Notes: generated from the sequence alone by a model not told the origin. Numbered from the stretch's first letter, positions 2,134 to 16,760 are shown. The stretch: 64,000 nt of DNA from Chitinophagaceae bacterium (GCA_016713965.1 JADJOC010000005.1:637-64636), one strand, 5' to 3'. Made by a program: numbers and translations.

Positions 2134-2340
2134 ATATCACGGGACAAATTCTTAACTACTCTTAGATTTGGCAATACATAAAAAAAGATTAACCTTAAAA
2201 GATGTTTTACTGTACCTTTTACACAAAATGTTGTGTATTCACAATTGCATAGGAGTGAGTGTAAATAAAAAACCACATTAATCAGCCACACGCTTACTTC
2301 CCATATTATATAGCTTTTACAAAAAAAGCCATTTAAACAT

Positions 2341-2830
2341 TCTTTCACGCTTCCCCCGTGTTTATGCGAGGCCTACGTTGTTGGGGTTTCGTTTTTTTAG
2401 AAAAGGGGGTGGGTCGCTTTTTTTGTTTGTATTAGCCTGTTAGTCAATTAGTTGCGCTGCTTATGGGTGATGGGATAAGGGCATGAGTAGTTAGTTATGT
2501 TGATGTGCTGGGGCTGGGTATTGGCATTGGTTGGGGTATCATACTACTACTTAATAGCGGTGTGGGGTAATAGGGTTTGATTTAAGGCAGGGTAATGGTG
2601 GGTGTAGTAGGGTAGGCAGGGGGAGTGAATTATCGGGGCGTGGTGTGGCTGCAATTGCGTTGTTGGTCATTAGGTTGGGTAATGGGCATGGTGATAGCCT
2701 GTGGTATAGCGTGAACTGGTAAACATTAATTGATAGTTGGGGCAACTGTGTGGAATTTCCAGACTGTTCGGGGTCTTGGATTGGTATCTCCTAATCTAGG
2801 GGATATTGGGTGATTCTATGTTGATGGGAA
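2341..2830 (+). other. G/T-rich, C-poor non-coding tract with G-quadruplex-type runs
   Basis: Many GGG/GGGG runs on the + strand, e.g. GGGtaatggtGGGtgtagtaGGGtaggcaGGGGG at 2590-2623. GGGTAAT recurs 3 times. The only ORF is a Pro-rich antisense artefact. Confidence 0.6.
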
Positions 2831-2848
2831 TTTTACGATCGAGAAAAT

Positions 2849-2894
2849 AGGGTATTTCTACTCTTGTTTGTAGCTACATTTCGCCTTATCTTTG
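2849..2894 (+). promoter_or_regulatory. phage promoter family copy P1 (hairpin box + CTTG-N20-TATCTTTG)
   Basis: AGGGTA-tttc-TACTCTTG (2849-2866), a 20-nt spacer, then TATCTTTG (2887-2894), 33 nt upstream of the ATG at 2927. Confidence 0.55.
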
Positions 2895-2926
2895 CTCTAT
2901 CATTAACAACTAAACAACAACGCAAA

Positions 2927-3166
2927 ATGAAAACAGTACTAATTATTATCGCTCTATTGGTTAGCTTACAATCTATCGCATGTGGGGATCATGGGAAAAA
3001 AGGGAAAAAAAATAAACACTCTAAATTGCCTCCTCTAGAATTAAGATGTACGGAATGTAATAAATGGAGCGTAAAAGATGAAGAATATTGCTGGACGCAT
3101 AGCCCGTATAAATTAGAATTAAAAGAATTGAGAGAGAAAGCAGCAAAATTACGCATCAAAAAATAG
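2927..3166 (+). CDS. putative lipoprotein (79 aa)
   Basis: MKTVLIIIALLVSLQSIAC: signal peptide with a lipobox-like Cys. The ATG at 2927 is preferred over the upstream TTG of the ORF track. Confidence 0.6.
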   Translation: MKTVLIIIALLVSLQSIACGDHGKKGKKNKHSKLPPLELRCTECNKWSVKDEEYCWTHSPYKLELKELREKAAKLRIKK

Positions 3167-3210
3167 AGTAGTTTTGCTCTATTAAGTTCAGAACTTTTGC
3201 ACTACCTTTG
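3163..3210 (+). promoter_or_regulatory. phage promoter family copy P2 (variant hairpin + TACCTTTG)
   Basis: ATAGAG-tagttttg-CTCTAT hairpin, then the 20-nt spacer TAAGTTCAGAACTTTTGCAC, then TACCTTTG (3203-3210). Confidence 0.5.
3184..3196 (+). promoter_or_regulatory. 13-bp palindromic operator-like site AAGTTCaGAACTT inside the promoter spacer
   Basis: Perfect 6-bp half sites. Identical copy at 5372-5384 and near-identical copy at 5100-5112. Confidence 0.45.
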
Positions 3211-3234
3211 ATTTATCAATTTAAAATAACAAAC

Positions 3235-3456
3235 ATGAAAAATAAAATAACTCTTTTGGAAATTGAAGCCAACGCTGCTAATAGCCTATTAACAGAAGAA
3301 GAATATAGTTTAGCCCTTTGGATTTTCTTATTGAATAAAGAAAATAAGAAAAATGTTTTAAGCCTTGCCAAAAACCTAAACATATACCCAAAACCTGCAA
3401 ATGTTCATTATTCAATAATGAAAGAATTAACGATCCACATTAGTAATAACAATTAA
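3235..3456 (+). CDS. hypothetical phage protein (73 aa)
   Basis: ATG after an A/C-rich leader, in the co-oriented early block. Confidence 0.55.
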   Translation: MKNKITLLEIEANAANSLLTEEEYSLALWIFLLNKENKKNVLSLAKNLNIYPKPANVHYSIMKELTIHISNNN

Positions 3457-3482
3457 ACAACAACAATTAAACAACAACAATT

Positions 3483-3632
3483 ATGAAAACAACATTATTA
3501 GCATTTCAAGAATTTAGACAACAATTTTTAGACAAACTTAAAATTGTAAGCCCTAGCCAACCGAATAAATGGTATGAATTTCAAGCCGAATACGCTTATG
3601 AAGTTTATTTGAAAAGAGAAAACAGGATATAA
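3483..3632 (+). CDS. hypothetical small protein (49 aa)
   Basis: Hand-translated MKTTLLAFQEFRQQF...RENRI. It fills the gap between track ORFs and has the same aacaacaa leader style. Confidence 0.45.
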   Translation: MKTTLLAFQEFRQQFLDKLKIVSPSQPNKWYEFQAEYAYEVYLKRENRI

Positions 3633-3672
3633 TTATAACAATAACAATTAAAACGTTTAAATCGTAACAACA

Positions 3673-3801
3673 ATGAAACTATTAAATTTAAAAACAGATT
3701 TACCATACTTAGCTAGGAAAAGCAAAGATGTAAATGAATTTTTAGAACATTGGAACATTACCCGTGAAAAATTAAATATCTTAAAAAATAATACATTTTA
3801 A
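3673..3801 (+). CDS. hypothetical small protein (42 aa)
   Basis: Hand-translated MKLLNLKTDLPYLARKSKDV...; tight packing. Confidence 0.4.
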   Translation: MKLLNLKTDLPYLARKSKDVNEFLEHWNITREKLNILKNNTF

Positions 3802-3821
3802 AAATAAAAAACATATATAAA

Positions 3822-4241
3822 ATGAAAACAACAAAAGACTACACAATACGCCTTATTTGCGGAATGATTTTATTTGCAGCACTATTTAGCTGTAAGGGTA
3901 ATGGAACTACGGATACCCCATTATCTGAGATAACTGGCGAAGATAATTTTCACACTAAAATTATAGACGGTTGTGAATATATATATAAATATTGTGGCTA
4001 TCAGCGTGGTTATGTATTTACACACAAAGGAAATTGCAAAAACCATGACAATAAATACACACTTATACAATCAGATTCACCACACTTACCTAATTATCAC
4101 CCTGAAATAGATTTAATCAGCAATGATACAATCTATGTTAATTGGTATAGTAATGATAAAGCGCCGTTTTATGATGGTGAAGGAAATGTAATACCTGACA
4201 AAATAGTTAGGCTATTCGTACAATCAATCACAATTCGTTAA
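3822..4241 (+). CDS. putative lipoprotein (139 aa)
   Basis: N-terminus ...MILFAALFSCKGNG has a signal peptide and lipobox Cys. Confidence 0.6.
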   Translation: MKTTKDYTIRLICGMILFAALFSCKGNGTTDTPLSEITGEDNFHTKIIDGCEYIYKYCGYQRGYVFTHKGNCKNHDNKYTLIQSDSPHLPNYHPEIDLISNDTIYVNWYSNDKAPFYDGEGNVIPDKIVRLFVQSITIR

Positions 4242-4300
4242 AATGACTAAGCCTGATACTGATTCTGTTAATAAATACTTTTACTTTAATAAATAATAAT

Positions 4301-4516
4301 ATGAAAAATTGTGTAGATAATAGATTAATTAAATATATGGAAGACAAACACAAACAAGACCTAGAAAACAATAAAAAAACAGATGTTATAATTGTTGATT
4401 TTGAATGTGAAGAAAATGGATACTATAAATACAGATTTTTACTCACAAAAAAGATTGATTCAGGTGATAAAATGAGTGAGATTTATGATGCAATATTAAA
4501 AATAGTCAATTCGTAA
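4301..4516 (+). CDS. hypothetical phage protein (71 aa)
   Basis: Intact ORF in the early block. Confidence 0.55.
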   Translation: MKNCVDNRLIKYMEDKHKQDLENNKKTDVIIVDFECEENGYYKYRFLLTKKIDSGDKMSEIYDAILKIVNS

Positions 4517-4519
4517 ATC

Positions 4520-4564
4520 GAGTAGAAATACTCTTGTTTAAATAAAAAGCAGATATTATTTTTG
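4520..4564 (+). promoter_or_regulatory. phage promoter family copy P3
   Basis: GAGTA-gaaa-TACTCTTG (4520-4536), a 20-nt spacer, then TATTTTTG (4557-4564). There is no ATG for the next 230 nt. Confidence 0.5.
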
Positions 4565-4570
4565 CTTAAT

Positions 4571-4773
4571 CAAAATATTCTTTTTAGAAACACATAGGAA
4601 TTAAGGTCAAAATATTTTCTTGTTGCCGAAAACTGGTAATTTTTAACAACAATCGAGAAAATAGTAGGAAGCCATCCACGTTAAAAAGCGTAGGTTTCAC
4701 ATTATTCTATCGGTTGTGGGTATACCAGTACCTCGGCATCTGTAGGATTTGTGGCCTGCGCTTTTTAATTTTT
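4571..4773 (+). ncRNA. candidate small non-coding RNA (about 200 nt) between P3 and a terminator-like stem
   Basis: No ATG anywhere in the interval. A 12-bp stem AAAAAGCGTAGG (4683-4694) / CCTGCGCTTTTT (4755-4766) is followed by AATTTTT. Confidence 0.35.
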
Positions 4774-4794
4774 AAACCCTAATCCCATACTAAA

Positions 4795-4980
4795 ATGAAA
4801 TTATTACAAGAATTAAGAGAAGGCAAATCAGTCCCAAATTTAGATCAGTACATTTCTAATAATGTATTAAAGCAATTCGCTAAATCCAAATTCCACATAC
4901 TTAATACTAGTCGAAGAGAACGTGTATTAGTATGGCAGGATTTGTATATAGATTACATTAACAAAAGAAATTCAAACTAA
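4795..4980 (+). CDS. hypothetical phage protein (61 aa)
   Basis: Intact ORF. Confidence 0.5.
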   Translation: MKLLQELREGKSVPNLDQYISNNVLKQFAKSKFHILNTSRRERVLVWQDLYIDYINKRNSN

Positions 4981-4994
4981 TAAACCTTATTGTT

Positions 4995-5102
4995 ATGAAT
5001 TACTTTAATAAACTTAAAAATAAACTGGCATTTTCAACAATACAACTCACTTGTATTCTTATTATTATTTTAGCAATATTTATTTTTGTTTTAATTTTTT
5101 AG
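4995..5102 (+). CDS. hypothetical small membrane protein (35 aa)
   Basis: Hand-translated MNYFNKLKNKLAFSTIQLTCILIIILAIFIFVLIF, with one hydrophobic helix. Confidence 0.3.
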   Translation: MNYFNKLKNKLAFSTIQLTCILIIILAIFIFVLIF

Positions 5103-5126
5103 TTCAGAACTTTTGCGCTATATTTA
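5095..5126 (+). promoter_or_regulatory. promoter variant with the AGTTCAGAACT operator and TATATTTA box
   Basis: Same spacer sequence as P2/P4 (tAGTTCAGAACTTTTGCGC), then TATATTTA (5119-5126). The ATG at 5131 implies a very short leader. Confidence 0.4.
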
Positions 5127-5130
5127 CAAT

Positions 5131-5334
5131 ATGAAAAAGAAAAAACAACTTTATGCTGGTACTTATATCTCAGTAAGGGAATTTGTCAATTCAGGTAAAT
5201 TACTTAATAATAATCAACAACCAGTAACTGAAACTTATGTTTACAGGCTTATACGTAACTTCCAAGAAGGTAAAAGAGATAACCTGCCTTTTGAATATAT
5301 AAGACTAGGGCAAATAATTAGGATTAAACAGTAA
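5131..5334 (+). CDS. excisionase/AlpA-type HTH DNA-binding protein (67 aa)
   Basis: YISVREFV...VTETYVYRLIRNFQEG...LPFEYIRLGQIIRI resembles the HTH_17/Xis family pattern. Confidence 0.45.
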   Translation: MKKKKQLYAGTYISVREFVNSGKLLNNNQQPVTETYVYRLIRNFQEGKRDNLPFEYIRLGQIIRIKQ

Positions 5335-5352
5335 TATTACTATTAATAAAAT

Positions 5353-5398
5353 AGGGTAAACATACTCTTGTAAGTTCAGAACTTTTGCACTACCTTTG
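5353..5398 (+). promoter_or_regulatory. phage promoter family copy P4
   Basis: AGGGTA-aaca-TACTCTTG (5353-5370), the spacer TAAGTTCAGAACTTTTGCAC, then TACCTTTG (5391-5398). Confidence 0.55.
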
Positions 5399-5453
5399 AT
5401 TTATCAAACTGAAATAATAACAACAATTTTTAAACAACTAAAAATAACAAACA

Positions 5454-5684
5454 ATGAAAACTTACGAAGGAACAATGACAATAAAATGGTATAAAAATCA
5501 TAGTGGAGATTGCAGACCATTAACAATTGATTGCAAAGACAAAATAGAATTAAATAAAGAGTTAAAAAGAATTACAGAAGCATACAAAACTCTTGGCGAT
5601 TCTCCCGAATATCATCTTGCTAAATCTTGCAACATTGGTACTCCTGCATTTAGTGTGAATTTTGATTTATCTCAAAGAAAATAA
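5454..5684 (+). CDS. hypothetical phage protein (76 aa)
   Basis: Intact ORF. Its leader ttttaaacaactaaaaa(t/a)aacaaacaATG is shared with the next gene. Confidence 0.55.
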   Translation: MKTYEGTMTIKWYKNHSGDCRPLTIDCKDKIELNKELKRITEAYKTLGDSPEYHLAKSCNIGTPAFSVNFDLSQRK

Positions 5685-5741
5685 CACCAATTTATTAAAT
5701 AAAAACAACAATAATTTTAAACAACTAAAAAACAACAAACA

Positions 5742-6032
5742 ATGAAAAAAGTAATCTTAACAATCGCAGTAGCTTTATTCTCAATCGTAGGAGTAAACGC
5801 TCAAAAAGTAACAACTGATGCTAATGGTAATTATGTAGCAGTTAAAAGTGAAAGAGTAAAAGCAGAGGCAAAAGAAACTGGCAAAACTTATACAGATGCA
5901 AAAGGTGTAGTGTATAATGTAATGCAATCAGCAAATGGTAAACTATTTGTTATCAAAACCAGCAAAAATACTGGTAATGAATATAAAATGTACTTAAAAA
6001 CAGAGGAAGAACAAACAACGGCTAAAAACTAG
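5742..6032 (+). CDS. secreted protein with signal peptide (96 aa)
   Basis: MKKVILTIAVALFSIVGVNAQ is a signal peptide with a typical AQ cleavage context. Confidence 0.6.
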   Translation: MKKVILTIAVALFSIVGVNAQKVTTDANGNYVAVKSERVKAEAKETGKTYTDAKGVVYNVMQSANGKLFVIKTSKNTGNEYKMYLKTEEEQTTAKN

Positions 6033-6105
6033 TTTTCATAGAGCAATCCCCTCTTAAATGTTTCTACATTATGGGGGCTTATTTTAAATCATTAATCAAA
6101 TTATT

Positions 6106-6282
6106 ATGGAAAATAAAATAACAAAAATAACTTTAGAGGATTATAAAACATTTCAATCTTTACATATTTGTGGAGATGCCGAAACAATATCAAAAATATT
6201 GCAATATATAAGCGTGTTAAACAATATTAATAATACGCAAATAATTATGCCTAACATTAATGCTGCCATAACCAAAAATTAA
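6106..6282 (+). CDS. hypothetical small protein (58 aa)
   Basis: Hand-translated MENKITKITLEDYKTF...; fills a gap in the block. Confidence 0.45.
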   Translation: MENKITKITLEDYKTFQSLHICGDAETISKILQYISVLNNINNTQIIMPNINAAITKN

Positions 6283-6287
6283 TAATC

Positions 6288-6527
6288 ATGGATACCCTAC
6301 AAAAAGCAATTAAAGAACTTAAAAAAGTAAAAAAAGAAAAACAATTAGGGGTATTTAATTACTTGGACACCGAATTTACTTTAAAATTTATAGCCCAACA
6401 GGCTTTGGATATTGATGCAAATGGGAATAGCTATGGCACTAAAACACAAAAAATAGCTTACCATAGTGCTATTAATCAATTTGGAGAACCTTTAGTTAAT
6501 GCAGCTATTGAACTTTACAACTCTTAA
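6288..6527 (+). CDS. hypothetical phage protein (79 aa)
   Basis: Intact ORF. Confidence 0.55.
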   Translation: MDTLQKAIKELKKVKKEKQLGVFNYLDTEFTLKFIAQQALDIDANGNSYGTKTQKIAYHSAINQFGEPLVNAAIELYNS

Positions 6528-6539
6528 AATTATAATAAA

Positions 6540-6761
6540 ATGCAAGATCCAAGAGACAAAAGGATATATATAGATGACAATGGTAATGAATGGCTTACAA
6601 ATGAAAATGGTGAGTTATTAAAAGACGAAAATGGGAATAATATACCACCATCTAAAACAAATAAAACATATTCCTCATCTGGTTGGACTTTTTATGATTC
6701 TAGTAAAGGTCATTGTCCTTTATGCGGCAATATATCTTGCAGAGGTACTTGTTTTAAATAA
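6540..6761 (+). CDS. hypothetical protein with C-terminal Cys cluster (73 aa)
   Basis: C-terminus is HCPLCGNISCRGTC. Confidence 0.55.
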   Translation: MQDPRDKRIYIDDNGNEWLTNENGELLKDENGNNIPPSKTNKTYSSSGWTFYDSSKGHCPLCGNISCRGTCFK

Positions 6762-6770
6762 TATTAATTT

Positions 6771-6965
6771 ATGGAAACTTTAATAATAAAAGCAATATAT
6801 AAAGGGGATCATTCCATGTTTGAAAAAGGCAAAGAATATTCTATTATAGTAACTAAAATAGAAAAAGGCTGGCAATTGATAACAATTGATAATGATAAAA
6901 AAACACATTACTACCATTCACTTAAAGAATTTATAGGAGAATGGGGGAATATTTCAAACCTTTAA
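6771..6965 (+). CDS. hypothetical phage protein (64 aa)
   Basis: Intact ORF. Confidence 0.5.
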   Translation: METLIIKAIYKGDHSMFEKGKEYSIIVTKIEKGWQLITIDNDKKTHYYHSLKEFIGEWGNISNL

Positions 6966-6971
6966 CGGCTG

Positions 6972-7045
6972 AGGGTTGGCGATAGTGCCGCTAACCGAAA
7001 ACTCAATATTTAGCACCAAACTTGAAGCGGCATTTTGCCAACCCT
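6972..7045 (+). repeat. intercistronic long hairpin E1
   Basis: AGGGTTGGC-gatag-TGCCGCT pairs with AGCGGCA-tttt-GCCAACCCT across a 33-nt loop. Confidence 0.6.
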
Positions 7046-7099
7046 ATATTAGCTTTAGGTTTTAAAAATTTTAGGGAGGGCTTTCATTGAACAATTAAA

Positions 7100-7546
7100 A
7101 TGAGTGTAATAAACAATTTAAAAGGACATATAGTAAAAGACGGAAAAGTAGTTTACTCAGAGCAAATAGAGAACGGTTTACATTTTGCTGTTATATTGAT
7201 GTATGAACCATTTTATGATGGAAAGAATAGTACCAATCATCAAAACTCATCTCAATTAATATGCGAGGCAACAATGACAACTGGCAACAAGCATACTTGG
7301 GGAAACGGAGTAATGAGTTTAGATGAAGCAAGTTGGATTGAGAAAATAGAGGTAACAGAAAAATGGAAGCCATTAAGGGAAGAACTTGAAACCAAAGACG
7401 GATTTAGAGTATGGCAAAAAGATTACCAATACAATGAATACGAAGAAGAAAAAGACGGCAAAAAAGTGAAAATAAAAACGAGAAGGGTTAGTTGGTTAGT
7501 TGAAGTTCCGAAACTTGATTTGCTCCGATATTGTAAAATTGATTAA
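7100..7546 (+). CDS. hypothetical phage protein (148 aa)
   Basis: Intact ORF. Confidence 0.6.
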   Translation: MSVINNLKGHIVKDGKVVYSEQIENGLHFAVILMYEPFYDGKNSTNHQNSSQLICEATMTTGNKHTWGNGVMSLDEASWIEKIEVTEKWKPLREELETKDGFRVWQKDYQYNEYEEEKDGKKVKIKTRRVSWLVEVPKLDLLRYCKID

Positions 7547-7588
7547 TTGTGTGTCGGAAAAATTTTTAAAACTTGAAGCTAACATATT

Positions 7589-7664
7589 GGGGCTTTGCGT
7601 AGTAGCCCTTAGTAGAAACTTAAAATTAACCAGGACACTTGATAGGGCTATTACGCAAAACCCT
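7589..7664 (+). repeat. intercistronic long hairpin E2
   Basis: GGGGCTTTGCGTAGTAGCCCT pairs with AGGGCTATTACGCAAAACCCT: 21 positions with 2 G.T and 1 mismatch. Confidence 0.6.
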
Positions 7665-7690
7665 TGCTATGTGCCGTTATTTCAAACGAT

Positions 7691-7999
7691 ATGGACATAA
7701 TAGAAAAAAAATTATCAGAAAAGTTGAAGAAAACAGGTGAACTCGAAGGTGGTTTATTTGCTGAAATATCATTGCAATATTGTGGTAGGGATTTCGTAGC
7801 AAGAAAAGACTTGTACACAGTAAAAAATGGATTGGTTTACAGTATAAATAAAGACGGTAGCCTATATGCTACTGGTGATTGTTTATATAACGTTCAAAGA
7901 GATTGTCATAGAATTGGGAAGTATAACCATGACGATAACAATCAATTTAAAAGTAGTACATTTAGCTACTCTCAAATAAAGAAGTTGCTCAAACTATAA
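7691..7999 (+). CDS. hypothetical phage protein (102 aa)
   Basis: ATG at 7691 (MDIIEKKLSEK...). The upstream part of the track ORF lies in the E2 repeat. Confidence 0.55.
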   Translation: MDIIEKKLSEKLKKTGELEGGLFAEISLQYCGRDFVARKDLYTVKNGLVYSINKDGSLYATGDCLYNVQRDCHRIGKYNHDDNNQFKSSTFSYSQIKKLLKL

Positions 8000-8003
8000 C
8001 GTG

Positions 8004-8123
8004 ATTGCTTGCTGAAGTGCAGGTATTTGAAAATATCTCGTTTGGTAGCTTAATATTCTAAAGATGAGTAAAGAAAAAAATGTTGATAGCGGTTCCGTCC
8101 AGCCTGCATTGCAGCAAGCAAAT
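8004..8123 (+). repeat. intercistronic long hairpin E3 (loop contains the methyltransferase start codon)
   Basis: ATTGCTTGCTGAAGTGCAGG (8004-8023) pairs with CCTGCATTGCAGCAAGCAAAT (8103-8123): 20 positions with 1 G.T and 1 mismatch. Confidence 0.6.
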
Positions 8124-8768
8124 TGTTGTGTGCCGTTACGGGTACTAAATCTTTATGCTGGCATAGGGGGTAATCGCAAACTTTGGGAGAATGTCCAGGT
8201 AACAGCAATAGAGTACACCGATGAAATTGCAGAGGTTTATAAAAGCAACTTTAAAGATGATACTGTAATAGTTACCGATGCTCACCAGTACCTTTTAGAA
8301 AACTTTGAAAACTTTGATTTTGTTTGGAGTTCGCCGCCTTGCCAATCACATAGCAAAATGATAAGAAGCGGCAGGAATAGAAAACCACGTTACCCGGATT
8401 TGAAACTGTATGAAGAAATACTTTTTTTGAAGCACAACTTTAAAGGCAAGTGGTTGGTTGAAAATGTGATACCATACTATGAGCCTTTAATACCTGGAAA
8501 GAAAATAGGGCGGCATTTATTTTGGGCTAATTATCCATTGACTGAAATAGAAGTGCCGGAATTTAAAAACATGATGAACAGGCAAAATTTAACTGCAAAA
8601 AAGCAGTTGCAGGATTGGCTGGGGATTTATTACGAAAAGAATATTTACTATGAGGGAAACCATTGTGCAACACAGATTTTAAGAAATTGTGTTCACCCGG
8701 TATTAGGTAACCATGTTTTTAAATGTCAAAACAATGTCGTTACGCAGCCTGAATTATTTGGGTGGTAG
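8064..8768 (+). CDS. DNA (cytosine-5) methyltransferase, short form (234 aa)
   Basis: Motif I LNLYAGIGG, motif IV SSPPCQSHS and motif VI LVENV are present. The C-terminal motifs and TRD look reduced. Confidence 0.7.
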   Translation: MSKEKNVDSGSVQPALQQANCCVPLRVLNLYAGIGGNRKLWENVQVTAIEYTDEIAEVYKSNFKDDTVIVTDAHQYLLENFENFDFVWSSPPCQSHSKMIRSGRNRKPRYPDLKLYEEILFLKHNFKGKWLVENVIPYYEPLIPGKKIGRHLFWANYPLTEIEVPEFKNMMNRQNLTAKKQLQDWLGIYYEKNIYYEGNHCATQILRNCVHPVLGNHVFKCQNNVVTQPELFGW

Positions 8769-8787
8769 TAATGGCACACAACGAACA

Positions 8788-8960
8788 GGGCTTGCTTGCA
8801 GTAGCGGCAATAGAATTACGTCTGCTGAGGCAAATGCCCAATAAAGAACCAAAGTTTAAATAATATTTAAAAGCTAAATTTATAACGTCCAGATGGAACA
8901 AAAGAACAACAACGAACCGCAGCCGATTGAAACCACGCCTGCCGCTATTGCAGCAAACCC
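8788..8960 (+). repeat. intercistronic long hairpin E4
   Basis: GGGCTTGCTTGCAGTAGCGGC pairs with GCCGCTATTGCAGCAAACCC. It shares CAACGAACAGGGCTT with E5. Confidence 0.55.
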
Positions 8961-9165
8961 CATGTTGGCAGCAGGTGTGGTCTTGTTTGATGGCAAAAAG
9001 GTTATAATTCAGGAAGCAAATTATATAGAGCATGGTTGGTACATAGAAATAATACACAACGAAATTACTCTATGGGAAATTCCTTATGGCGGTGGTGAAC
9101 CGATAAGAATAAGTGACTTCTTAACTGTTGCTGGTGCTATTCACGCAGCAGGTCGTCTTACGTAA
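8893..9165 (+). CDS. hypothetical phage protein (90 aa; alternative start 8962)
   Basis: Intact ORF. The first 23 codons lie in the E4 loop and right arm, so the ATG at 8962 (MLAAGVV...) is an alternative start. Confidence 0.5.
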   Translation: MEQKNNNEPQPIETTPAAIAANPMLAAGVVLFDGKKVIIQEANYIEHGWYIEIIHNEITLWEIPYGGGEPIRISDFLTVAGAIHAAGRLT

Positions 9166-9185
9166 CACTTGACGGCCAACGAACA

Positions 9186-9359
9186 GGGCTTTGTGCAGGT
9201 GGGGAACTTGAAAAACGTCTGCTGAAACCGCTGTTGGGCTTTGATTAAAAGATAAAAATAAATTCTCTGTTTGGCTTTGTTCGTCAAGCCCACGACTAAA
9301 GCTAAATAGAATTACCAATGCTCATTGTGAGTTGTGTCAGCCCCACTTGCACAAAACCC
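9186..9359 (+). repeat. intercistronic long hairpin E5
   Basis: GGGCTTTGTGCAGGTGGGG pairs with CCCCACTTGCACAAAACCC: 19 positions with 1 G.T and 1 mismatch, and a loop of about 136 nt. Confidence 0.6.
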
Positions 9360-9385
9360 AATGTTGGCTGCATACCTTTCTTTTT

Positions 9386-9697
9386 ATGTCAAACGAGATG
9401 TTAGAAAAATTAAAAAAGTTGCGTCCTTTGTCGCCCACAGTAAATCAAAAGTATGTTGATGTAAGTCTTAAAATATTGGATGCGTCCAAAGTCTTACACC
9501 CAACATATACATTAGAAGAATTACACGACTTTGTATTTTTTAAAGAAGTCCCACAAAGAAAAATTAGTCCCGAAAGATTAAATACTCACTTGTGGGAAAT
9601 CGTTAAAGAGCATTGGTCAGCAACAAAGTCTGATGGTGAACTTGCTGAAATTTTGGTTAGTCCAATCTTTCAACAAAAACTCCAATCTGACAGTTAA
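9386..9697 (+). CDS. hypothetical phage protein (103 aa)
   Basis: ATG at 9386 (MSNEMLEKL...). The upstream track extension lies in the E5 repeat. Confidence 0.55.
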   Translation: MSNEMLEKLKKLRPLSPTVNQKYVDVSLKILDASKVLHPTYTLEELHDFVFFKEVPQRKISPERLNTHLWEIVKEHWSATKSDGELAEILVSPIFQQKLQSDS

Positions 9698-9992
9698 AGT
9701 CTGTTGGGTCGGTAGGTGAAAGAAGATTAATTCCGTAACCACCACTCATATCGTTTAAGTGGTCGTCTAATTTGAAATTAATCTCAACAACTTTACATCT
9801 ATAACCTTCAAGAGTTAGAATGTTTCCAACTTCAATAAATTGAGAATTGTCCCACTTTTGACGTTCAATATTTAATTCGTCTAAAGTTTCTCTGTTGTAG
9901 ATATAGGCAATTTCTCTGCCTTCTCTGTCGCCTTGTGAAGCATACTTAAAAAGTATTCTTGCAAAAAACCTTTCTAGCTTTGGTTGTGTCAT
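9657..9992 (-). CDS. hypothetical protein on the opposite strand (111 aa)
   Basis: Intact ATG ORF convergent with 9386-9697, with a 41-nt 3' overlap. One of only three minus-strand ORFs in the + strand early arm (with 14612-15166 and the tentative 15535-15702). Confidence 0.5.
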   Translation of the reverse strand: MTQPKLERFFARILFKYASQGDREGREIAYIYNRETLDELNIERQKWDNSQFIEVGNILTLEGYRCKVVEINFKLDDHLNDMSGGYGINLLSPTDPTDFNCQIGVFVERLD

Positions 9993-10054
9993 ACTGTAAA
10001 AATTAAATTATAAAATAAAAGCTGTGTCCAAATAAGGTTGCAGCCAACGTCAAA

Positions 10055-10162
10055 GCATTGCCGAAGTTGGGGATTTTGAAAACCAAATGTTCAATTTAGC
10101 AATGAAGTTTAATAGTAGTACAAAAGTTCAATTAACCACGTCTGCCCCAATTTTGGCAATGC
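10055..10162 (+). repeat. intercistronic long hairpin E6
   Basis: GCATTGCCGAAGTTGGGG pairs with CCCCAATTTTGGCAATGC: 18 bp, 16 Watson-Crick plus 2 G.T. Confidence 0.65.
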
Positions 10163-10208
10163 AATGTTAGCAGTAGCCTTTTTGGTCAGTCGTACAAAAC
10201 AAATAAAA

Positions 10209-10613
10209 ATGGATAAAATTCAAAAATTGACAGACTTAATAAAGTCAAACATTAAAGAACTTACTAAAATAGAAGTAGGACAAGTTTTTAACTCAAAATA
10301 CTATGGGCATATAGTAGCAACAAAGGTTACTCATTTATCAGAAGGCAAATATTCAATTTACGGATTTGATATAAAAGAAGGTTTGCCAAGAGATAATTAT
10401 TATCCGAGAGATTTAGATTTAGTTGGTAAAGAACCAATGCTTAATAATGTTTTACATTTTTTTGTTGAAAGTTTGTATTCAACTTCAAAAGAAGATAAGC
10501 ACCTTTCTGTTTTGGATATGATTTTGTCAGAATGGGATTACTCAAAAACGTACCTTAAAGACCAAAGTGAAGCAACTATAAATTATCTTTTCGATTTAGC
10601 AGGGTGTTCGTAA
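10209..10613 (+). CDS. hypothetical phage protein (134 aa)
   Basis: ATG at 10209 (MDKIQKL...). The ORF is bracketed by GTTAGCAGTAGCC (10166-10178) and GGTTACTGCTAAC (10614-10626). Confidence 0.55.
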   Translation: MDKIQKLTDLIKSNIKELTKIEVGQVFNSKYYGHIVATKVTHLSEGKYSIYGFDIKEGLPRDNYYPRDLDLVGKEPMLNNVLHFFVESLYSTSKEDKHLSVLDMILSEWDYSKTYLKDQSEATINYLFDLAGCS

Positions 10614-10631
10614 GGTTACTGCTAACGATTG

Positions 10632-10741
10632 AGTATTGGCGAAGAAGCGGACTTTTACCACTAAAGTTGATACGAAGAACTAATGTTGATGTTACTACAA
10701 ACGTTCATACGAAGCACTAAAACCGCTTTTTTGCCAATACT
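10632..10741 (+). repeat. intercistronic long hairpin E7
   Basis: AGTATTGGCGAAGAAGCGG pairs with CCGCTTTTTTGCCAATACT: 19 bp, 17 Watson-Crick plus 2 G.T. The loop holds the direct repeat GTTSATACGAAGMACTAA twice. Confidence 0.65.
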
Positions 10742-10829
10742 TTGTTATGCGTTCGCCTTATTTTTTCGTGTTGATTTTCAGTAAGTTAGAAAATATTTTG
10801 AAAATAAATCCAAAATACTTTGAAAAAAG

Positions 10830-10860
10830 TTTGCAGTTATCAAAATAGGTTGTATATTTG
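10830..10860 (+). promoter_or_regulatory. canonical Bacteroidota sigma-A type promoter
   Basis: TTTG (10830-10833), N19, TATATTTG (10853-10860), preceded by the direct repeat AAAATAyTTTGAAAA twice. Confidence 0.6.
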
Positions 10861-10901
10861 TATCAGCAATAAAGCAAAAAACAATCTTAAAAATAAATAA
10901 A

Positions 10902-11087
10902 ATGACAACTTCAATTAAACTTCAAATTAAATCAGTTTACGGAAATGAAATGATTTATCCAGCTTGTGAAACTTCTAAAACTCTTGCAAATTTGACAAGA
11001 AAAAAAACGTTAGATGGCAGAGATTTAGAAATGATAAAATCTCTTGGATATACAATTGAATGGGTAAACGCATATCAAATGGCATAA
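10902..11087 (+). CDS. hypothetical protein (61 aa)
   Basis: First gene after the canonical promoter; TAATG overlap with the next gene. Confidence 0.55.
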   Translation: MTTSIKLQIKSVYGNEMIYPACETSKTLANLTRKKTLDGRDLEMIKSLGYTIEWVNAYQMA

Positions 11088-11257
11088 TGGCAAATAAAAA
11101 ATTAAAAACGCAAGGCGGTAAACGTGTTGGCTCTGGTCGTAAAAAAGCAGATTACGAAACTAAAACGATTGCCTTTCGTGTTCGGGTAGAATTTGTCGAA
11201 CCGATTAAAAAGATGGTTAAGGATTATGTTTCGGAGCGTCTTAAAGGTGACGCATAA
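11087..11257 (+). CDS. small basic DNA-binding-like protein (56 aa)
   Basis: MANKKLKTQGGKRVGSGRKKADYETKTIAFRVRVEF...: basic N-terminus followed by a beta-strand-like segment. The RHH-like assignment is tentative. Confidence 0.45.
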   Translation: MANKKLKTQGGKRVGSGRKKADYETKTIAFRVRVEFVEPIKKMVKDYVSERLKGDA

Positions 11258-11309
11258 CGGGTATATGTAAGAAATATTTGTAATTAATTGATAAATAAGA
11301 TATTATAAT

Positions 11310-12146
11310 ATGGAAATTCCTAAGTATATAGAAATGTATAGGAAAGATTTATTGCTTAAAAATTATGCTTTATCAAGTATAGATAATTATGTTTCGCAGG
11401 TTAAATTATTTTTGCATGACCATAATAGATTATTTACTGAACCTGCAAAAGTCAATGAAAAGACAATAAAAGAATGGTTATTAAAAGCTAAATCTATAAA
11501 TAGCAGAAAACATAAGTTATCTGCTTTGAAACTCTTTTACCATTTAACAATTAAGCAGCCAATGAAATTCAAGTATATTGAATACCCTAAAGCTGATAAA
11601 AAACTGCCAATAGTTTTAAGTGTTGAAGAAATACAGAAAATGTTTTCAGTTTGCGAGAACTTAAAGCACAAGGTTATTTTATCACTTCTTTATTCCGCAG
11701 GATTAAGAGTATCTGAACTTATTAATTTAAAGTGGCAGCATATTGATAGAAGCAGACTGGTTATAAATATCATTGCTGCTAAAGGGAATAAAGATAGACA
11801 AGTTATGCTTACACCTTCAATTGTACCATTGCTGGAAAAGTATTGGAATGAATATAAAAGCAAGGAGTATGTTTTAAATGGATGGAAAAATGAATTGCAA
11901 TATTCAGATAGAAGTGTAGGTGAAGTAATAAAACAATTGGCAGATAAAGCAGGAATAAATAAAAGAGTATATACGCATTTAATTAGGCATTGTTCATTTA
12001 CTCATTTAGTTGAAGCAGGATGCGATATAAATTTGGTACAAAGATTAGCTGGACATTCAAGCATAAAAACTACTAACCTATATTTACATACTTCACATAC
12101 TTTAATAAGCAAAATACAATCACCACTATCACAAATTAAAATGTAA
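11310..12146 (+). CDS. int: tyrosine site-specific recombinase / integrase, XerC/D-like (278 aa)
   Basis: Catalytic pattern R (AGLRVSEL), K (AAKGNKDR), HxxR (THLIRHCSF), H (LAGHSSIKTT), Y (NLYLHTS), plus an N-terminal SAM-like core-binding region. Confidence 0.85.
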   Translation: MEIPKYIEMYRKDLLLKNYALSSIDNYVSQVKLFLHDHNRLFTEPAKVNEKTIKEWLLKAKSINSRKHKLSALKLFYHLTIKQPMKFKYIEYPKADKKLPIVLSVEEIQKMFSVCENLKHKVILSLLYSAGLRVSELINLKWQHIDRSRLVINIIAAKGNKDRQVMLTPSIVPLLEKYWNEYKSKEYVLNGWKNELQYSDRSVGEVIKQLADKAGINKRVYTHLIRHCSFTHLVEAGCDINLVQRLAGHSSIKTTNLYLHTSHTLISKIQSPLSQIKM

Positions 12147-12158
12147 AAACATAAATAA

Positions 12159-12320
12159 ATGGTAGAAGAGATAAAACTAAATATTCATTTAACTTTAGAG
12201 ATAGATTCTGGATTAAATATAAAAGACCTTAAAGAATATATTGAAAATAATTTAAAACTAAAACCACACCCATTTATAGATATAATTTCTAAACATATAC
12301 AAATAAAAAATAATAAATAA
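12159..12320 (+). CDS. hypothetical small protein (53 aa)
   Basis: Hand-translated MVEEIKLNIHLTLEID... Confidence 0.4.
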   Translation: MVEEIKLNIHLTLEIDSGLNIKDLKEYIENNLKLKPHPFIDIISKHIQIKNNK

Positions 12321-12338
12321 CCCTTTAATCCCTACTTT

Positions 12339-12512
12339 ATGATTTGCGAAAAATTTAATCAATTAACCCCTTTTGAAAAAGTTATCTACATAGGTAAACT
12401 AGTACATGCTGTAGAAAATGATGATATTCTTTTTGATGCAGGAAATGAAATAATAGAACTTGCTAATAATAAAGGAATTTTTAAAGGAATAACAATTTTC
12501 CCAACAAAATAA
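12339..12512 (+). CDS. hypothetical small protein (57 aa)
   Basis: Hand-translated MICEKFNQLTPFEKVIY... Confidence 0.4.
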   Translation: MICEKFNQLTPFEKVIYIGKLVHAVENDDILFDAGNEIIELANNKGIFKGITIFPTK

Positions 12513-12535
12513 ATATAACTTTTATAAAAAGAAAT

Positions 12536-12919
12536 ATGAATATAAATGAAAAAGGCATTTCTCTTTTAAATAAACAGATTTGCGATATTATAGGCGAAGT
12601 TGAAGTTGATTATGAGCCAGGTGGTGGCTTATGGCTTGATTCAAGTAGTATATTAGATGCTGCAAATGAAGTTGAAAAATTGATATTTGAAGAAGTAAAA
12701 AGGGTATCTATCGAATACGCTCAATTTAGAGACACTTATCCAAGATATGAAAGCCAAAAGATGCACATTCATCATCAAAAACTTGGGGGGCTTACTACTT
12801 GGCGTGGCACGTCTGATGAAAGTATTTACGAAGCATATTTGAAAGGTGAGCAACATTACAACCCATTAATTAAAGAAATGGAAGATTTAAAGTTGAAGGG
12901 TGGTAGTGCTAACCAATAG
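12536..12919 (+). CDS. hypothetical phage protein (127 aa)
   Basis: Intact ORF. Confidence 0.6.
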   Translation: MNINEKGISLLNKQICDIIGEVEVDYEPGGGLWLDSSSILDAANEVEKLIFEEVKRVSIEYAQFRDTYPRYESQKMHIHHQKLGGLTTWRGTSDESIYEAYLKGEQHYNPLIKEMEDLKLKGGSANQ

Positions 12920-12955
12920 TATAAAATATACTACACAATATTTAATATATAAACA

Positions 12956-13273
12956 ATGGCAAAAATAACAACACTACAAAAGTTAAAATTAAAGGCAGAT
13001 GGCTGCGCTAGGATGCCTTCTTTGAAGAGAATATCTAGGATGTTGCACGACTATAATATTCCACACACCCTTACAGAAAGTTTTAATACCGTAGAGCATA
13101 AAACAAAAGGGAGGAATTATGTAAACCATAGGCATATAGGCCGAGATGGTTATTTTCTTCATATTGACGGCACCAATATACGTCTAAATACATCTAGCAG
13201 TTACTACTCCTTTGATTCAAAGGGGTATGCTCAAGAAATTGTTGAATATTTAAACGAAAAACAAATAAAATGA
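12956..13273 (+). CDS. hypothetical phage protein (105 aa)
   Basis: Intact ORF. Confidence 0.6.
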   Translation: MAKITTLQKLKLKADGCARMPSLKRISRMLHDYNIPHTLTESFNTVEHKTKGRNYVNHRHIGRDGYFLHIDGTNIRLNTSSSYYSFDSKGYAQEIVEYLNEKQIK

Positions 13274-13380
13274 CAACAGAAGAAATTTTAAAACAACTTA
13301 ACTTAAAATGCAAATAAGCATATTAATTATAAATCTTACACAATGGGACTACGATTAAATCAAATTTAAAAACTAAAAAT

Positions 13381-13683
13381 ATGGATATTAAAGAAATATT
13401 AGATACAATAAAGTCTGTAAAATTATGCCTAATGGCTCACCCTGATAATGAGGAAGGCTCAGAGTTTGCAGATAGAATAGATGATTTAACAGATATTGAG
13501 GTTAAACTTGATAGGCTAGAATCCTACGAATTGCAGGAATTTTTAGATGATAACATTGAAAGATCGAAATGCTTATCCAATATTAAAACCGATAATGGAG
13601 ATAATCCTTTATTCATGGCTGGGTGGATAGCTGCCTTAATGCATGTAAAGTTAAATTACCTACAACAGTTGAATAATAAATAA
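13381..13683 (+). CDS. hypothetical acidic protein (100 aa)
   Basis: Intact ORF. Confidence 0.55.
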   Translation: MDIKEILDTIKSVKLCLMAHPDNEEGSEFADRIDDLTDIEVKLDRLESYELQEFLDDNIERSKCLSNIKTDNGDNPLFMAGWIAALMHVKLNYLQQLNNK

Positions 13684-13703
13684 AAGCCAGTAAATTAATA
13701 AAA

Positions 13704-13925
13704 ATGCAAATAGAAACAAGATTAGCAGACGAAGATGTAAAAATAAAACTTAGCCTTTGCCAAAAATGCAATGGTATTATTAGAGCTGCTGTTGAACACG
13801 AAATGGATACTAAAAGTAAAAATGAGTTTTTAAAAGAAGTAATGAGATATGATTTGTCAGTAAAAACTATCCCGTTGCTTGAATATAAGGAAGTAAAAAA
13901 TCGTTGGTGCAAATGTATATCATAG
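13704..13925 (+). CDS. hypothetical Cys-cluster protein (73 aa)
   Basis: CQKC...CKC pattern. Confidence 0.5.
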   Translation: MQIETRLADEDVKIKLSLCQKCNGIIRAAVEHEMDTKSKNEFLKEVMRYDLSVKTIPLLEYKEVKNRWCKCIS

Positions 13926-13994
13926 CGTTGAAGCCAACGTGTTGATGGATACTATGCCCCTCTCTTTAGGTATTGGTATTAAAAAATTTTTAAA

Positions 13995-14210
13995 ATGGCT
14001 GAAATTGAAAAAAAATGTAATGATGCCAAAGCGTGGATAAGGTATTCGGGTGGCAGCGAAGGTGATATTTGCGTTTACCGCAGATGCCCAGAATGTGGCA
14101 AATATTTGAAATCTGGCGAAGTGCTTACTAATATGGCAGGTGAGGCAAAAGTAAAAGGATATACTTGTAAAAAACATGGCGAAGTAGAGCCTTTTTATTT
14201 AAGAGATTAG
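13995..14210 (+). CDS. Zn-ribbon-like protein (71 aa)
   Basis: CPECGKY...CKKHG pattern. Confidence 0.55.
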   Translation: MAEIEKKCNDAKAWIRYSGGSEGDICVYRRCPECGKYLKSGEVLTNMAGEAKVKGYTCKKHGEVEPFYLRD

Positions 14211-14264
14211 GTCGTTTAGCGGTTCGTTGCGGTTAATTAGTATAAACTTTTAAATAACAATAAA

Positions 14265-14573
14265 ATGAAAATAGATACAAAAAAAATAGGAACATTCCTA
14301 AAATCAATTGATGATGCTGAATACATTTATATGCAGCATTGTATGGAAATGCGTAACGGAATAAACAACCTAATCAAAAGGCATAATTTGTCAAAGCAAG
14401 ATGTTTGCGAAAGGTTTAAAATCAAGCCTGCTAAATACAATGATTATGTAAAAGGCAATTACAACTATTCCGTTATGGATATGGCTTGTTTAAATGCTGC
14501 ATTTATGGAATTAGAAGCCGAAAAGCTAAAAGATAATGTTCCTGTTCAGGTCGCTGGTAGCAATGACCGCTAA
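14265..14573 (+). CDS. putative XRE-like HTH protein (102 aa)
   Basis: LSKQDVCERFKIKPAKYNDYVKGN resembles an HTH_XRE helix-turn-helix. The assignment is weak. Confidence 0.4.
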   Translation: MKIDTKKIGTFLKSIDDAEYIYMQHCMEMRNGINNLIKRHNLSKQDVCERFKIKPAKYNDYVKGNYNYSVMDMACLNAAFMELEAEKLKDNVPVQVAGSNDR

Positions 14574-14611
14574 CGGTGTCCTAAAATAGCACACCACTTT
14601 AAGGAAAATGA

Positions 14612-15166
14612 TTACTGTTCTAATAACACATAATCAACATCTTTCATTTTATATAAATCCATTTGTGAATATGTGTTAGTTATAAATTCATCCCATTGCG
14701 ATTTGAAAATGGTTTGACATCCTAAACTAGATGGTGAATTTAAGCTGCCTTTATGTATGTTTATTGCTATTCCTGTACTGTCTTTTCCATCTCTGGTTAC
14801 AGGTAGTTCCTCTTTTGGATTTGCAGGTCTTAATGCAGGGTAACCACCGCTAGGTTTACTTAAACCGTGCTTCCCTTTCTTATATTCATGAATACCTGCC
14901 TTTAGTACTGCTACACCTTTTTTAAAGGTAGAAGGGTCTGTATTGGCGTTGAATGCGGCAAAATAATCTTTACTACCTATCAAAAATATAGCATCGTCAT
15001 AAATCATCCTGTCATTCTTTGTAGGGTCTCCCATTGTTTTTTTATAATATCCCCTTACTCCCACTATAAAAAAATCAGGTATTACAAATTCAGGATAAAT
15101 ACTTTTAACTAAAGACAATACTTCTTTTTTAGTCATTTTGGGCTTAGACGGTGGTACTATATTCAT
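14612..15166 (-). CDS. putative cell-wall hydrolase / endolysin-like protein (184 aa from the ATG at 15166)
   Basis: Pattern GVRGYY...NDRMYDDAIFL...FNANTDPS...VTRDG...INIHKG...SSLGCQT resembles phage peptidoglycan-hydrolase / YkuD-like H...SxGC motifs. Confidence 0.4.
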   Translation of the reverse strand: MNIVPPSKPKMTKKEVLSLVKSIYPEFVIPDFFIVGVRGYYKKTMGDPTKNDRMIYDDAIFLIGSKDYFAAFNANTDPSTFKKGVAVLKAGIHEYKKGKHGLSKPSGGYPALRPANPKEELPVTRDGKDSTGIAINIHKGSLNSPSSLGCQTIFKSQWDEFITNTYSQMDLYKMKDVDYVLLEQ

Positions 15167-15365
15167 ATTATAAAGATAATAAAAACCACCCACCACACAA
15201 AGCCTTAGCTTCTTATTATGTATTGCTGTTGAAGGCAATGAAAAAGTGCCTATAATTCGACGTTATGCTAAACAGGCAGCTACACAGCTAAGCTGCAAGT
15301 GCGATTTAATTGTTTTTGCCCTAGCCACTGGCGAAGATTTTAGCGAAGATTAAAATATATAAAAA

Positions 15366-15560
15366 ATGGGTGATGATTACAGTTATTTAGAAGATTTAAT
15401 TTCTGGATTAACAGGCAGGATTGAAGAACTTGAATCCGAAATATCTTCTTTAAAAGAAACCATAGCTAAAAGTGAAAAGAAAATAAATGAAAGGATTGAT
15501 AGCACAAATAGTGAAATAGACGACATCAAAAGTTCTATTGATGATTTAGAGAACCCCTAA
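15366..15560 (+). CDS. coiled-coil acidic protein (64 aa)
   Basis: Heptad-like LEDLISGLTGRIEELESEISSLKETIAK. Confidence 0.5.
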   Translation: MGDDYSYLEDLISGLTGRIEELESEISSLKETIAKSEKKINERIDSTNSEIDDIKSSIDDLENP

Positions 15561-16757: not shown

Positions 16758-16760
16758 ATA

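Follow-up and report, generated by a model that had tools for sequence, protein, structure and literature searches.

An array of gene cassettes in a phage genome appears to form an integron-like system with its own tyrosine recombinase

The 64,000-nucleotide (nt) stretch of DNA described here (Chitinophagaceae bacterium, GCA_016713965.1 JADJOC010000005.1:637-64636; 'the window') is phage DNA with a G+C content of about 30%, and encodes a portal protein (45182-47542), a large terminase (47924-50026), virion proteins and a GroEL homologue. Seven long GC-rich inverted repeats (E1-E7), spanning 6964-10746, are interspersed with genes and followed by a tyrosine recombinase gene on the same strand, 570 bp downstream of E7. 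The region 6964-11258 is very probably a phage-borne, integron-like array of seven cassettes, with attC-type sites, a docking site and a recombinase of its own, and the phage appears to carry a complete, if unusual, integron-like gene-capture system. The principal features are listed below, with covariance-model scores in bits; R' is the right-hand box of an element, GTT where intact, and a slash marks a junction.

E1, 6964..7050, + strand: AAC, GGCTG, stem, 33-nt loop, stem, ATT; most distal element (39.1 bits, E 2e-7)
E2, 7581..7668, + strand: attC-like, with a degenerate R' box (GCT) and a 34-nt loop (56.3 bits)
E3, 7998..8127, + strand: attC-like, with a 77-nt loop containing ATG 8064, in frame with the C5 methyltransferase gene (48.1 bits)
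E4, 8780..8966, + strand: attC-like, with a 130-nt loop containing ATG 8893 (50.5 bits)
E5, 9178..9365, + strand: attC-like, with a 136-nt loop (44.7 bits)
E6, 10046..10168, + strand: attC-like, with a 72-nt loop; its module recurs beside attI in the relative L102 (117.1 bits)
E7, 10624..10746, + strand: attC-like, with a 72-nt loop; opens the attI-proximal cassette (107.2 bits)
Seven-cassette array, 6966..11257, + strand: each cassette is an element plus the gene or genes after it
attI-like site, 11246..11275, + strand: GGTGACGCATAAC/GGGTATATGTAAG..., AAC at 11256-11258; junction of variable array and conserved platform
Tyrosine recombinase, 11310..12146, + strand: 278 amino acids (aa), Xer/IntI-like without the IntI insertion; R, H-x-x-R, H and Y conserved

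A preliminary description of this DNA, made without database searches, had drawn attention to seven GC-rich hairpins at these positions, and they are real. Their arms are 18-22 nt long with 77-90% complementarity (ungapped count) around loops of 33-136 nt, and the stems of E1 and E4, which pair fully only with one bulge, were found once bulges were allowed. When the whole window was searched for stems of 14 or more Watson-Crick pairs that include seven or more G-C pairs, five matches resulted, all within 7590-10741, and 200 dinucleotide shuffles of 6900-11300 – a control the description had called for – gave a mean of 0.055 such stems per shuffle and never more than one; chance in AT-rich sequence therefore fails to explain E1-E7. 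A covariance model built from an alignment of related elements, in which E3, E6 and E7 were the only window members, recovered all seven on the + strand with filters off (39-117 bits; E 2e-7 to 9e-26) and found no further element in 1-64000, and the minus strand of the same elements scored 16 bits or less. No Rfam family matched in the window at the gathering threshold, and a tRNA scan of the window found none. Intrinsic terminators were considered and rejected, because there is no T run and the loops are too long.

The window elements share a layout of flank-AAC, a spacer of 4-6 nt, arm, loop, arm, a spacer of 2-3 nt and GTT-flank, the arms forming a stem of 18-21 bp, with the R' box degenerate in E1 (ATT) and E2 (GCT). 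Across 45 aligned elements, taken from phage and from bacterial loci, AAC and GTT never vary (45/45), the left spacer is 4-7 nt and usually begins with G, and the right spacer is 0-4 nt. The preliminary description had mentioned neither these conserved boxes nor the asymmetric spacers nor the outer helix, but the compensatory changes that it reported are well supported. The consensus of 23 pairs shows double changes in 19 (17 of 18 in the main helix), 93.4% of cells are paired, compared with 63.2% after shuffling (0/500 shuffles reach the observed value) and 34.6-46.4% with partners slid, and the covariation score is 0.72, versus 0.18 when shuffled and at most 0.13 when slid. Left arms pair at 95% of positions with their own right arms and at only 48% with those of other elements. 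AAC/GTT boxes, unpaired spacers and a stem of free sequence constitute the layout of integron attC sites. The comparison was also drawn from a published account (PMC9892861), and E1-E7 are most likely DNA recombination sites of the attC type.

Stems are about 20 bp, and loop lengths cluster at about 34, 72 and 135 nt. Loops of 72 nt contain three units spaced by about 19 nt (e.g. AAATGTTCAATTTA) and resembling AAA(T/A)GTT(C/G)AAT; these occur in E6 (10073-10144), E7 (10651-10722) and many related elements, including bacterial ones, and the third unit often bears a start codon. One element in the relative L020 (5782-6101) has a 259-nt loop enclosing a complete open reading frame (ORF) of 68 aa, so that a gene lies inside the hairpin.

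Most mismatched positions had been described as G on the left arm opposite T on the right, pairs that form as G.U only in + sense RNA, and this had suggested RNA roles. The G.T bias is confirmed, with amendments: the 'true mismatches' reported for E2, E4 and E5 are C.A, a combination that forms a wobble on the opposite strand, and E2 contains a single G.T rather than two. Among 40 non-redundant phage elements there are 68 G.T or T.G pairs versus 17 C.A or A.C (p 2e-8), among 40 non-redundant bacterial elements 92 versus 5 (p 9e-22), and one G.T position recurs in 43 of the 45 aligned sequences; one subfamily has a fixed C.A mismatch. Phage ORFs lie on the strand of element polarity in 34 of 36 cases, whereas bacterial ORFs lie on the opposite strand in 21 of 22. 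The wobble bias thus tracks element polarity even where the genes are opposite, and the constraint is therefore on folding of a single DNA strand and not on mRNA; G.U pairs are seen in sense RNA because the phage genes share the folding strand. This strand corresponds to the 'bottom strand' of integrons.

The loops bear on translation in another way. The preliminary description placed the downstream start codon within the loops of E3 (ATG 8064) and E4 (ATG 8893), and this proves general: the first in-frame ATG is inside the loop in 26 of 39 phage cassettes, 44-83 nt before the GTT end with a mode at -45, and GTT is then read as valine. The frame is open upstream for a median of 63 nt in phage cassettes, compared with 34.5 nt for the two alternative frames. 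The first in-frame ATG of the E6 cassette (10164) overlaps the GTT box and is not in the loop. Phage cassettes are inverted, with attC 5' of its gene and the ORFs directed toward attI (34/36), and because of this attC serves as a 5' leader. The loop may be a portable translation-initiation leader held open between the arms, and a secondary role of the elements in translation is plausible.

These observations bear on the explanation that the hairpins act mainly in + sense mRNA, as sites of RNase III or other processing, stability or translational control of the kind found in T7 early mRNA. Phage elements do lie on the coding strand, they fold below shuffled energies as RNA (z-scores -1.9 to -5.5; as DNA, 0 to -4.5), the + strand folds more stably than the - strand in five of the seven window elements, and many start codons lie within loops, with the frame open upstream. 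However, bacterial homologues keep the G.T polarity with their genes on the other strand, the outer flanks pair with a neighbour's flank and not with their own, which a local hairpin does not need, and homology between relatives breaks exactly at AAC, with turnover of cassettes beside the recombinase. We consider it improbable that RNA function is the main explanation, and the argument from G.U-only mismatches fails as such; an RNA role can nevertheless exist as a second function alongside recombination.

The recombinase gene encodes a protein matching Pfam Phage_integrase (E 1e-33), with the catalytic R, H-x-x-R, H and Y invariant across twelve relatives. Among NCBIfam models NF040815, 'site-specific tyrosine recombinase/integron integrase', fits it best (185 bits, with a cut-off of 220), and the integron-integrase model TIGR02249 matches in two separate stretches (159 bits, cut-off 265). 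Among solved structures the closest is IntI4, an integron integrase of Vibrio (2a3v; E 9e-30), in which 68 aa link the two aligned blocks where the phage protein has 26 aa; the Xer-like recombinase 4a8e, from an archaeon, aligns unbroken over residues 58-263, and XerA, XerC and XerD align end to end. The predicted protein is thus Xer-like and near to IntI, yet has no IntI-specific insertion. The best tblastn match among GenBank phages has 32% identity, with no close cultured relative, and a search of GenBank phage DNA with the array region returned only methyltransferase-gene matches of 65-73% identity. The exact protein is absent from the records, and relatives 98-99% identical were used.

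Between the last cassette and the recombinase lies the attI-like motif AAC-NNN-TATATGTAAG, which has no hairpin in the window or its relatives. In nearly all relatives a motif AAC-N3-4-TATATGTA precedes the recombinase ATG by 45-60 bp, and where recombinase identity is 48-73% the last cassette ends in ...YAAC with N3-4-TATATGTA directly after it.

The cassette ends have the form expected of box crossover. When the 12 nt after GTT are compared with the reverse complement of the 12 nt before the next AAC (or attI), the mean match is 9.08/12, with at least nine matches in 29 of 39 cases; the same flank matches the element's own left flank at a mean of 5.58/12 (at least nine in 1/40) and flanks from other loci at 5.42/12 (at least nine in 2%). 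A T.G wobble recurs at position 11 of the outer helix (left AT-N7-AAC, right GTT-N7-GT). Matches between successive window elements, with the 12-nt comparison last, include:

E3 to E4: 14/15 over the full box (GTT plus 12 nt); 11/12
E5 to E6: 15/16 with one indel; 11/12
E6 to E7: 14/15; 11/12
E1 to E2: 22/25 over 25 nt; 10/12

The flanks are thus complementary to the next element and not to their own, and therefore mark cassette ends, as crossover within the boxes yields; an RNA hairpin needs no such match. The ends of cassette 2 are mismatched (5/12) and, together with the degenerate R' boxes of E1 and E2, fit decay of older, distal cassettes.

Whether gene content between the elements varies among relatives was a question raised by the preliminary description, and it does vary. 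In contigs whose recombinase is 97.5-99% identical to that of the window, 11 different sequences abut one attI. Homology to the window starts at 11255/11256, the AAC of attI, in five contigs (L017, L018, L020, L021 and L022), and at 10631, in the left arm of E7, in three (L013-L015), so in these the hairpin travels with the genes on its right. Two pairs of filled and empty sites are exact. The first consists of an empty site in L106, ...AAATTGCAGCTAACG/TATATATGTAAG (also written ...GCAGCTAACG/TATATATG), and a filled one in L020, ...AAATTGCAGCTAACG/GTGGGCATTT..., which continues through nine further cassettes to ...GACCGCTAACG/TATATATGTAAG. In the second, L102 is empty, ...TAAGGTTACTGCTAACG/TATATATG (also written ...TACTGCTAACG/TATATATG), and the window is filled, ...TAAGGTTACTGCTAACG/ATTGAGTATTGG (the E7 cassette) ...GACGCATAACG/GGTATATG. 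These exact pairs point to crossover within AACG on the + strand and to cassette entry at the recombinase-proximal end. Many contigs of the close lineage end 55-750 bp upstream of the recombinase, as expected if populations are heterogeneous there. The right flank is also plastic in close relatives, without attC-like elements: insertions 3' of the recombinase in L103 (1546-2409), L105 (1373-2236) and L104 (4022-6896) carry a DndB-family gene or a sugar epimerase/dehydratase block.

The exactness of the junctions speaks to another explanation, in which the hairpins are dispersed repeats promoting homologous or illegitimate recombination, as in the hyperplastic regions of T4-type phages. In the promoter early stem-loops (PeSLs) of those phages an early promoter is joined to a short stem-loop, and exchange is believed to proceed by homology. 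Both systems have stem-loops between small accessory genes in a hyperplastic phage region, with content that varies among relatives, and here the elements, loops included, are 75-80% alike between unrelated cassettes, one attC module being identical around two unrelated ORFs. Unlike PeSLs, the window elements have AAC/GTT boxes, a recombinase, an attI-like site and exact junctions; the arm sequences of neighbouring elements differ, the junctions are precise within AACG between unrelated sequences, structure is conserved and not sequence, and no early-promoter motif accompanies the elements. We regard shuffling by repeats as very unlikely. The earlier proposal of PeSL-like boundaries holds insofar as the elements bound mobile modules that recombine; the mechanism would be of integron type, at AAC boxes by the adjacent tyrosine recombinase, and not homologous exchange. 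We give still less credence to miniature inverted-repeat transposable elements (MITEs), or hairpins of the repetitive extragenic palindrome (REP)/IS200 type, moved by a transposase. Inverted repeats in several copies and subfamilies would suit them, but there is one array per genome, in a single orientation beside a tyrosine recombinase, no HUH or DDE transposase was found among the scanned proteins of the array region, there are no target-site duplications, and the flanks pair with the flank of the next element.

The first set of related loci gave 51 covariance-model matches at E <=0.01, 50 on the + strand and the remaining one the minus strand of an element already counted, and 74 further viral contigs gave 172 matches; every one is on the strand of the recombinase, and 169 precede its gene. 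Of the 57 loci with 1 kb or more of sequence upstream, 46 have at least one element, and the largest arrays comprise ten. The only gene common to 1-17000 of the window and the first twelve phage loci (L001-L012) is the recombinase; recombinase, attI motif and array co-occur without any other shared gene, and therefore move as a unit.

The same elements occur in chromosomes of Bacteroidota, including Asprobacillus, Polaribacter irgensii, P. ponticola, Algibacter, Saccharicrinis, Bacteroidales, Cytophagales and others. Here the arrays adjoin, on the downstream side, recombinases 32-46% identical to the phage enzyme, of about 400 aa, without the IntI insertion and above the NF040815 cut-off (in the two scanned, L042 and L059), and have the classical order of ORF then element. 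These loci look like unannotated integron-type platforms. Bacterial contigs with arrays are L042, L047, L051, L054, L058, L059, L070, L071 and L075; at least ten elements are present in Polaribacter irgensii 23-P, and the first bacterial cassette begins 7-620 nt after the recombinase stop codon.

Polaribacter phage P12002L (L101) has elements of the same type between methylase genes, and no recombinase. Its attC sites have been reported as a CALIN, a cluster of such sites that lacks an integron integrase, and recombination with IntI1 was reported for one of them (PMC9892861). Both methyltransferase clusters (reverse strand, 29166-29247 and 37200-37304) end with a sequence of about 70 nt, AACGGATAAAACAAGTTTTACC..., after a ...TAAC box, which may be a remnant docking site in a recombinase-less phage.

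P12002L raises the question of whether the window array is likewise a fossil or passively acquired CALIN, with cassettes moved by host integrases and the adjacent gene encoding an unrelated phage integrase or Xer resolvase. Integrase-less clusters do occur in phages, P12002L among them with the same element type (PMC9892861), the window recombinase lacks the IntI insertion, and the R' boxes of E1 and E2 are degenerate. The definition of a CALIN – at least two attC sites and no IntI nearby – formally fits, the neighbouring protein falling below the IntI hidden Markov model cut-off, yet a cognate-looking recombinase and an attI-like site are present. Against this, recombinase, attI motif and co-oriented upstream array travel together across phages that share no other gene of window 1-17000, the junction between variable and conserved sequence is at AAC, 50 bp upstream of the recombinase gene, and the bacterial arrays also adjoin relatives of this enzyme. 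A passive cluster beside an unrelated recombinase seems a poor prospect to us.

For the integron-like array we propose the following scheme. Each attC has a box of flank plus AAC on the left and GTT plus flank on the right, with unequal unpaired spacers, a covarying stem and a loop between. The 278-aa recombinase would insert and excise cassettes by crossover within AACG, on the + strand, between the double-stranded attI-like site and an attC folded as single-stranded + strand DNA. The wobble polarity and the lower folding energy of the + strand in 5/7 elements favour the folded + strand as substrate. Anatomy, covariation, polarity, the link to the recombinase, exact junctions and cassette turnover are observed directly; catalysis by the window enzyme, the single-stranded substrate and the exact cleavage bond are what we infer from these patterns. 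New cassettes would enter beside the recombinase, with older ones decaying at the far end. Unlike in bacterial arrays, each gene lies downstream of its own attC on the folding strand, the attC loop acting as a 5' leader that often includes the start codon.

Several observations weigh against this scheme. The IntI-specific insertion of about 40 aa, an extra domain near patch III thought to be necessary for recombination of single-stranded attC, is absent from the window recombinase. Extrahelical bases, which confer strand selectivity from the L box of integron sites, are not evident in the stems, and five of the seven window stems are gapless; in their place are the near-invariant G.T wobble and the bias of G.T over C.A. 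At default filters, 11 of the 57 loci with enough upstream sequence gave no match. The E7 spacer (10627-10631) is GATTG in the window and GGACG in L013 (1860-1864) and L014 (2532-2536), differing from L013-L015 at three of five positions in a cassette otherwise 98.9% identical, which a simple AAC crossover fails to predict. Hairpin cores or whole attC modules are sometimes common to cassettes with unrelated genes, so some additional process must act. Thus window 10046-10625 and L102 6282-6893 share an identical AAC-hairpin-R' flank-ATG and the last 16 nt, TAAGGTTACTGCTAAC, including the stop codon, around unrelated ORFs (BLASTP E 0.04), a swap precise to the start and stop codons. The case for cassette excision comes from comparison of sequences, and predicted circular junctions of the E7 and E6 cassettes (type GACGCATAAC-GATTGAGTATTGG) were not found in metagenome contigs, a weak negative as small circles are rarely assembled.

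Compared with classical integrons (e.g. class 1 and the Vibrio cholerae superintegron), the phage system shares a tyrosine recombinase with a docking site and a cassette array bounded by imperfect palindromes, in which only the AAC/GTT triplets are invariant, spacers are unpaired and structure is conserved over sequence. Sequence past GTT is part of the following cassette, insertion is recombinase-proximal, and one strand folds better, which in the bacterial arrays is the strand opposite the genes. It differs in the size of the recombinase (278 aa, no IntI insertion, a split TIGR02249 match below the cut-off), in having a fixed G.T wobble (a fixed C.A in one subfamily) and no extrahelical bases, in its roughly 20-bp stems and loops of about 34, 72 or 135 nt, and in having a phage as host. 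Classical ORFs point away from attI, are read from the platform promoter Pc and have attC at their 3' side, an arrangement lacking in phage arrays, whose inverted genes point toward attI and the recombinase with attC as 5' leader. Among the attributes of integrons, attC, attI, cassette ends and turnover are thus found; absent are the IntI insertion, the extrahelical bases and the classical cassette orientation with its platform promoter.

Xer/dif systems resolve dimers at a duplex site, present once per replicon, in which two 11-bp arms flank a centre of 6-8 bp, and Xer enzymes can also use a folded single-stranded phage site, as in CTX phage. The end-to-end alignment with XerA, XerC and XerD is common ground with these systems (CTX phage and the pdif modules of Acinetobacter plasmids), but the window lacks a dif-like 11-6-11 duplex site and has many co-oriented sites per array with freely covarying arms, which implies pairing and not a fixed protein-binding sequence. 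With phage CALINs such as that of P12002L the array shares the element type between methyltransferase genes and a cargo rich in DNA methyltransferases; it differs in having a dedicated non-IntI recombinase, an attI-like site and turnover between near-identical phages.

Integrons are familiar as gene-capture devices of bacteria and require a specialised integrase. Surveys that rely on IntI have recovered hardly any from Bacteroidetes (PMC9024848) and no more than remnants from phages (PMC9892861), the latter study (2023) reporting such phages with integrase-less clusters and complete integrons only of the classical IntI type. We found no description in the literature of a platform of non-IntI recombinase, attI and array, in phages or Bacteroidota; an earlier publication is possible. 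It could equally prove right or wrong that these loci form a widespread, unrecognised class of integrons in Bacteroidota and their phages, with Xer-like recombinases lacking the IntI domain and strand choice by fixed wobbles instead of extrahelical bases, in which inverted phage cassettes with attC as a portable translation-initiation leader make the array an exchangeable bank of counter-defence genes (DNA methylases, Mom, glycosyltransferase) and identical modules around unrelated ORFs, joined precisely at start and stop codons, give a first direct view of cassette making. If the system is active, lytic or temperate phages would own a complete cassette-exchange machine, swapping anti-restriction and DNA-modification genes, and this exchange would explain part of phage hyperplastic regions. 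The IntI-specific domain would then not be required for attC-type recombination, which bears on the evolution of integron integrases from Xer, and a large class of platforms would have been missed by current integron finders. A constant attC module around unrelated ORFs makes the origin of cassettes directly testable.

The cassette genes and remaining features of the region are as follows; paired start coordinates are alternatives.

Conserved phage gene, 6771..6965, + strand: distal bound of the array; homology to L020 and L106 stops at about 6958
Cassette 1 ORF, 7100-7546
Cassette 2 ORF, 7691-7999
Cassette 3 ORF, 8064/8130-8768: C5 DNA methyltransferase
Cassette 4 ORF, 8893/8962-9165
Cassette 5 ORFs, 9398-9697 (+) and 9657-9992 (-)
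Cassette 6 ORF, 10164/10209-10613
Cassette 7 ORFs, 10902-11087 and 11060-11257
Promoter-like site of Bacteroidetes type, 10830..10860, + strand: TTTG-N19-TATATTTG, in the E7 cassette upstream of ORF 10902; a lead only

The C5 methyltransferase is the only recognisable cassette protein in the window (Pfam, PHROGs, NCBIfam). Cargo in relatives includes C5, MT-A70 and N6/N4 methyltransferases, two Mom proteins and a TET-associated glycosyltransferase, as well as a dATP/dGTP diphosphohydrolase domain, an RNA ligase and an HNH endonuclease. Judged from these family assignments, the theme of the cargo is DNA modification and counter-defence, and the same theme was noted for phage CALINs by Qi et al. 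(PMC9892861).

The Bacteroidetes promoter pattern gave 11 matches window-wide versus 7.4 expected, which is not above chance, and the search associated no promoter with elements or loops. The convergent ORFs of cassette 5 overlap by 41 nt and neither is of a recognisable family; ORF 9657-9992 is the sole array ORF of more than 100 aa on the minus strand. ORF 11060-11257 encodes 65 aa with a basic N-terminus (GGKRVGSGRKK...TIAFRV), like ribbon-helix-helix DNA-binding proteins, and is assigned to the cassette and not the platform because it is missing in close relatives. Elsewhere in the window, the GroEL-type chaperonin is encoded at 51226-52815 on the minus strand (PHROG 5725, E 8e-167), and an ORF of 2330 aa occupies 21933-28925, also on the minus strand.

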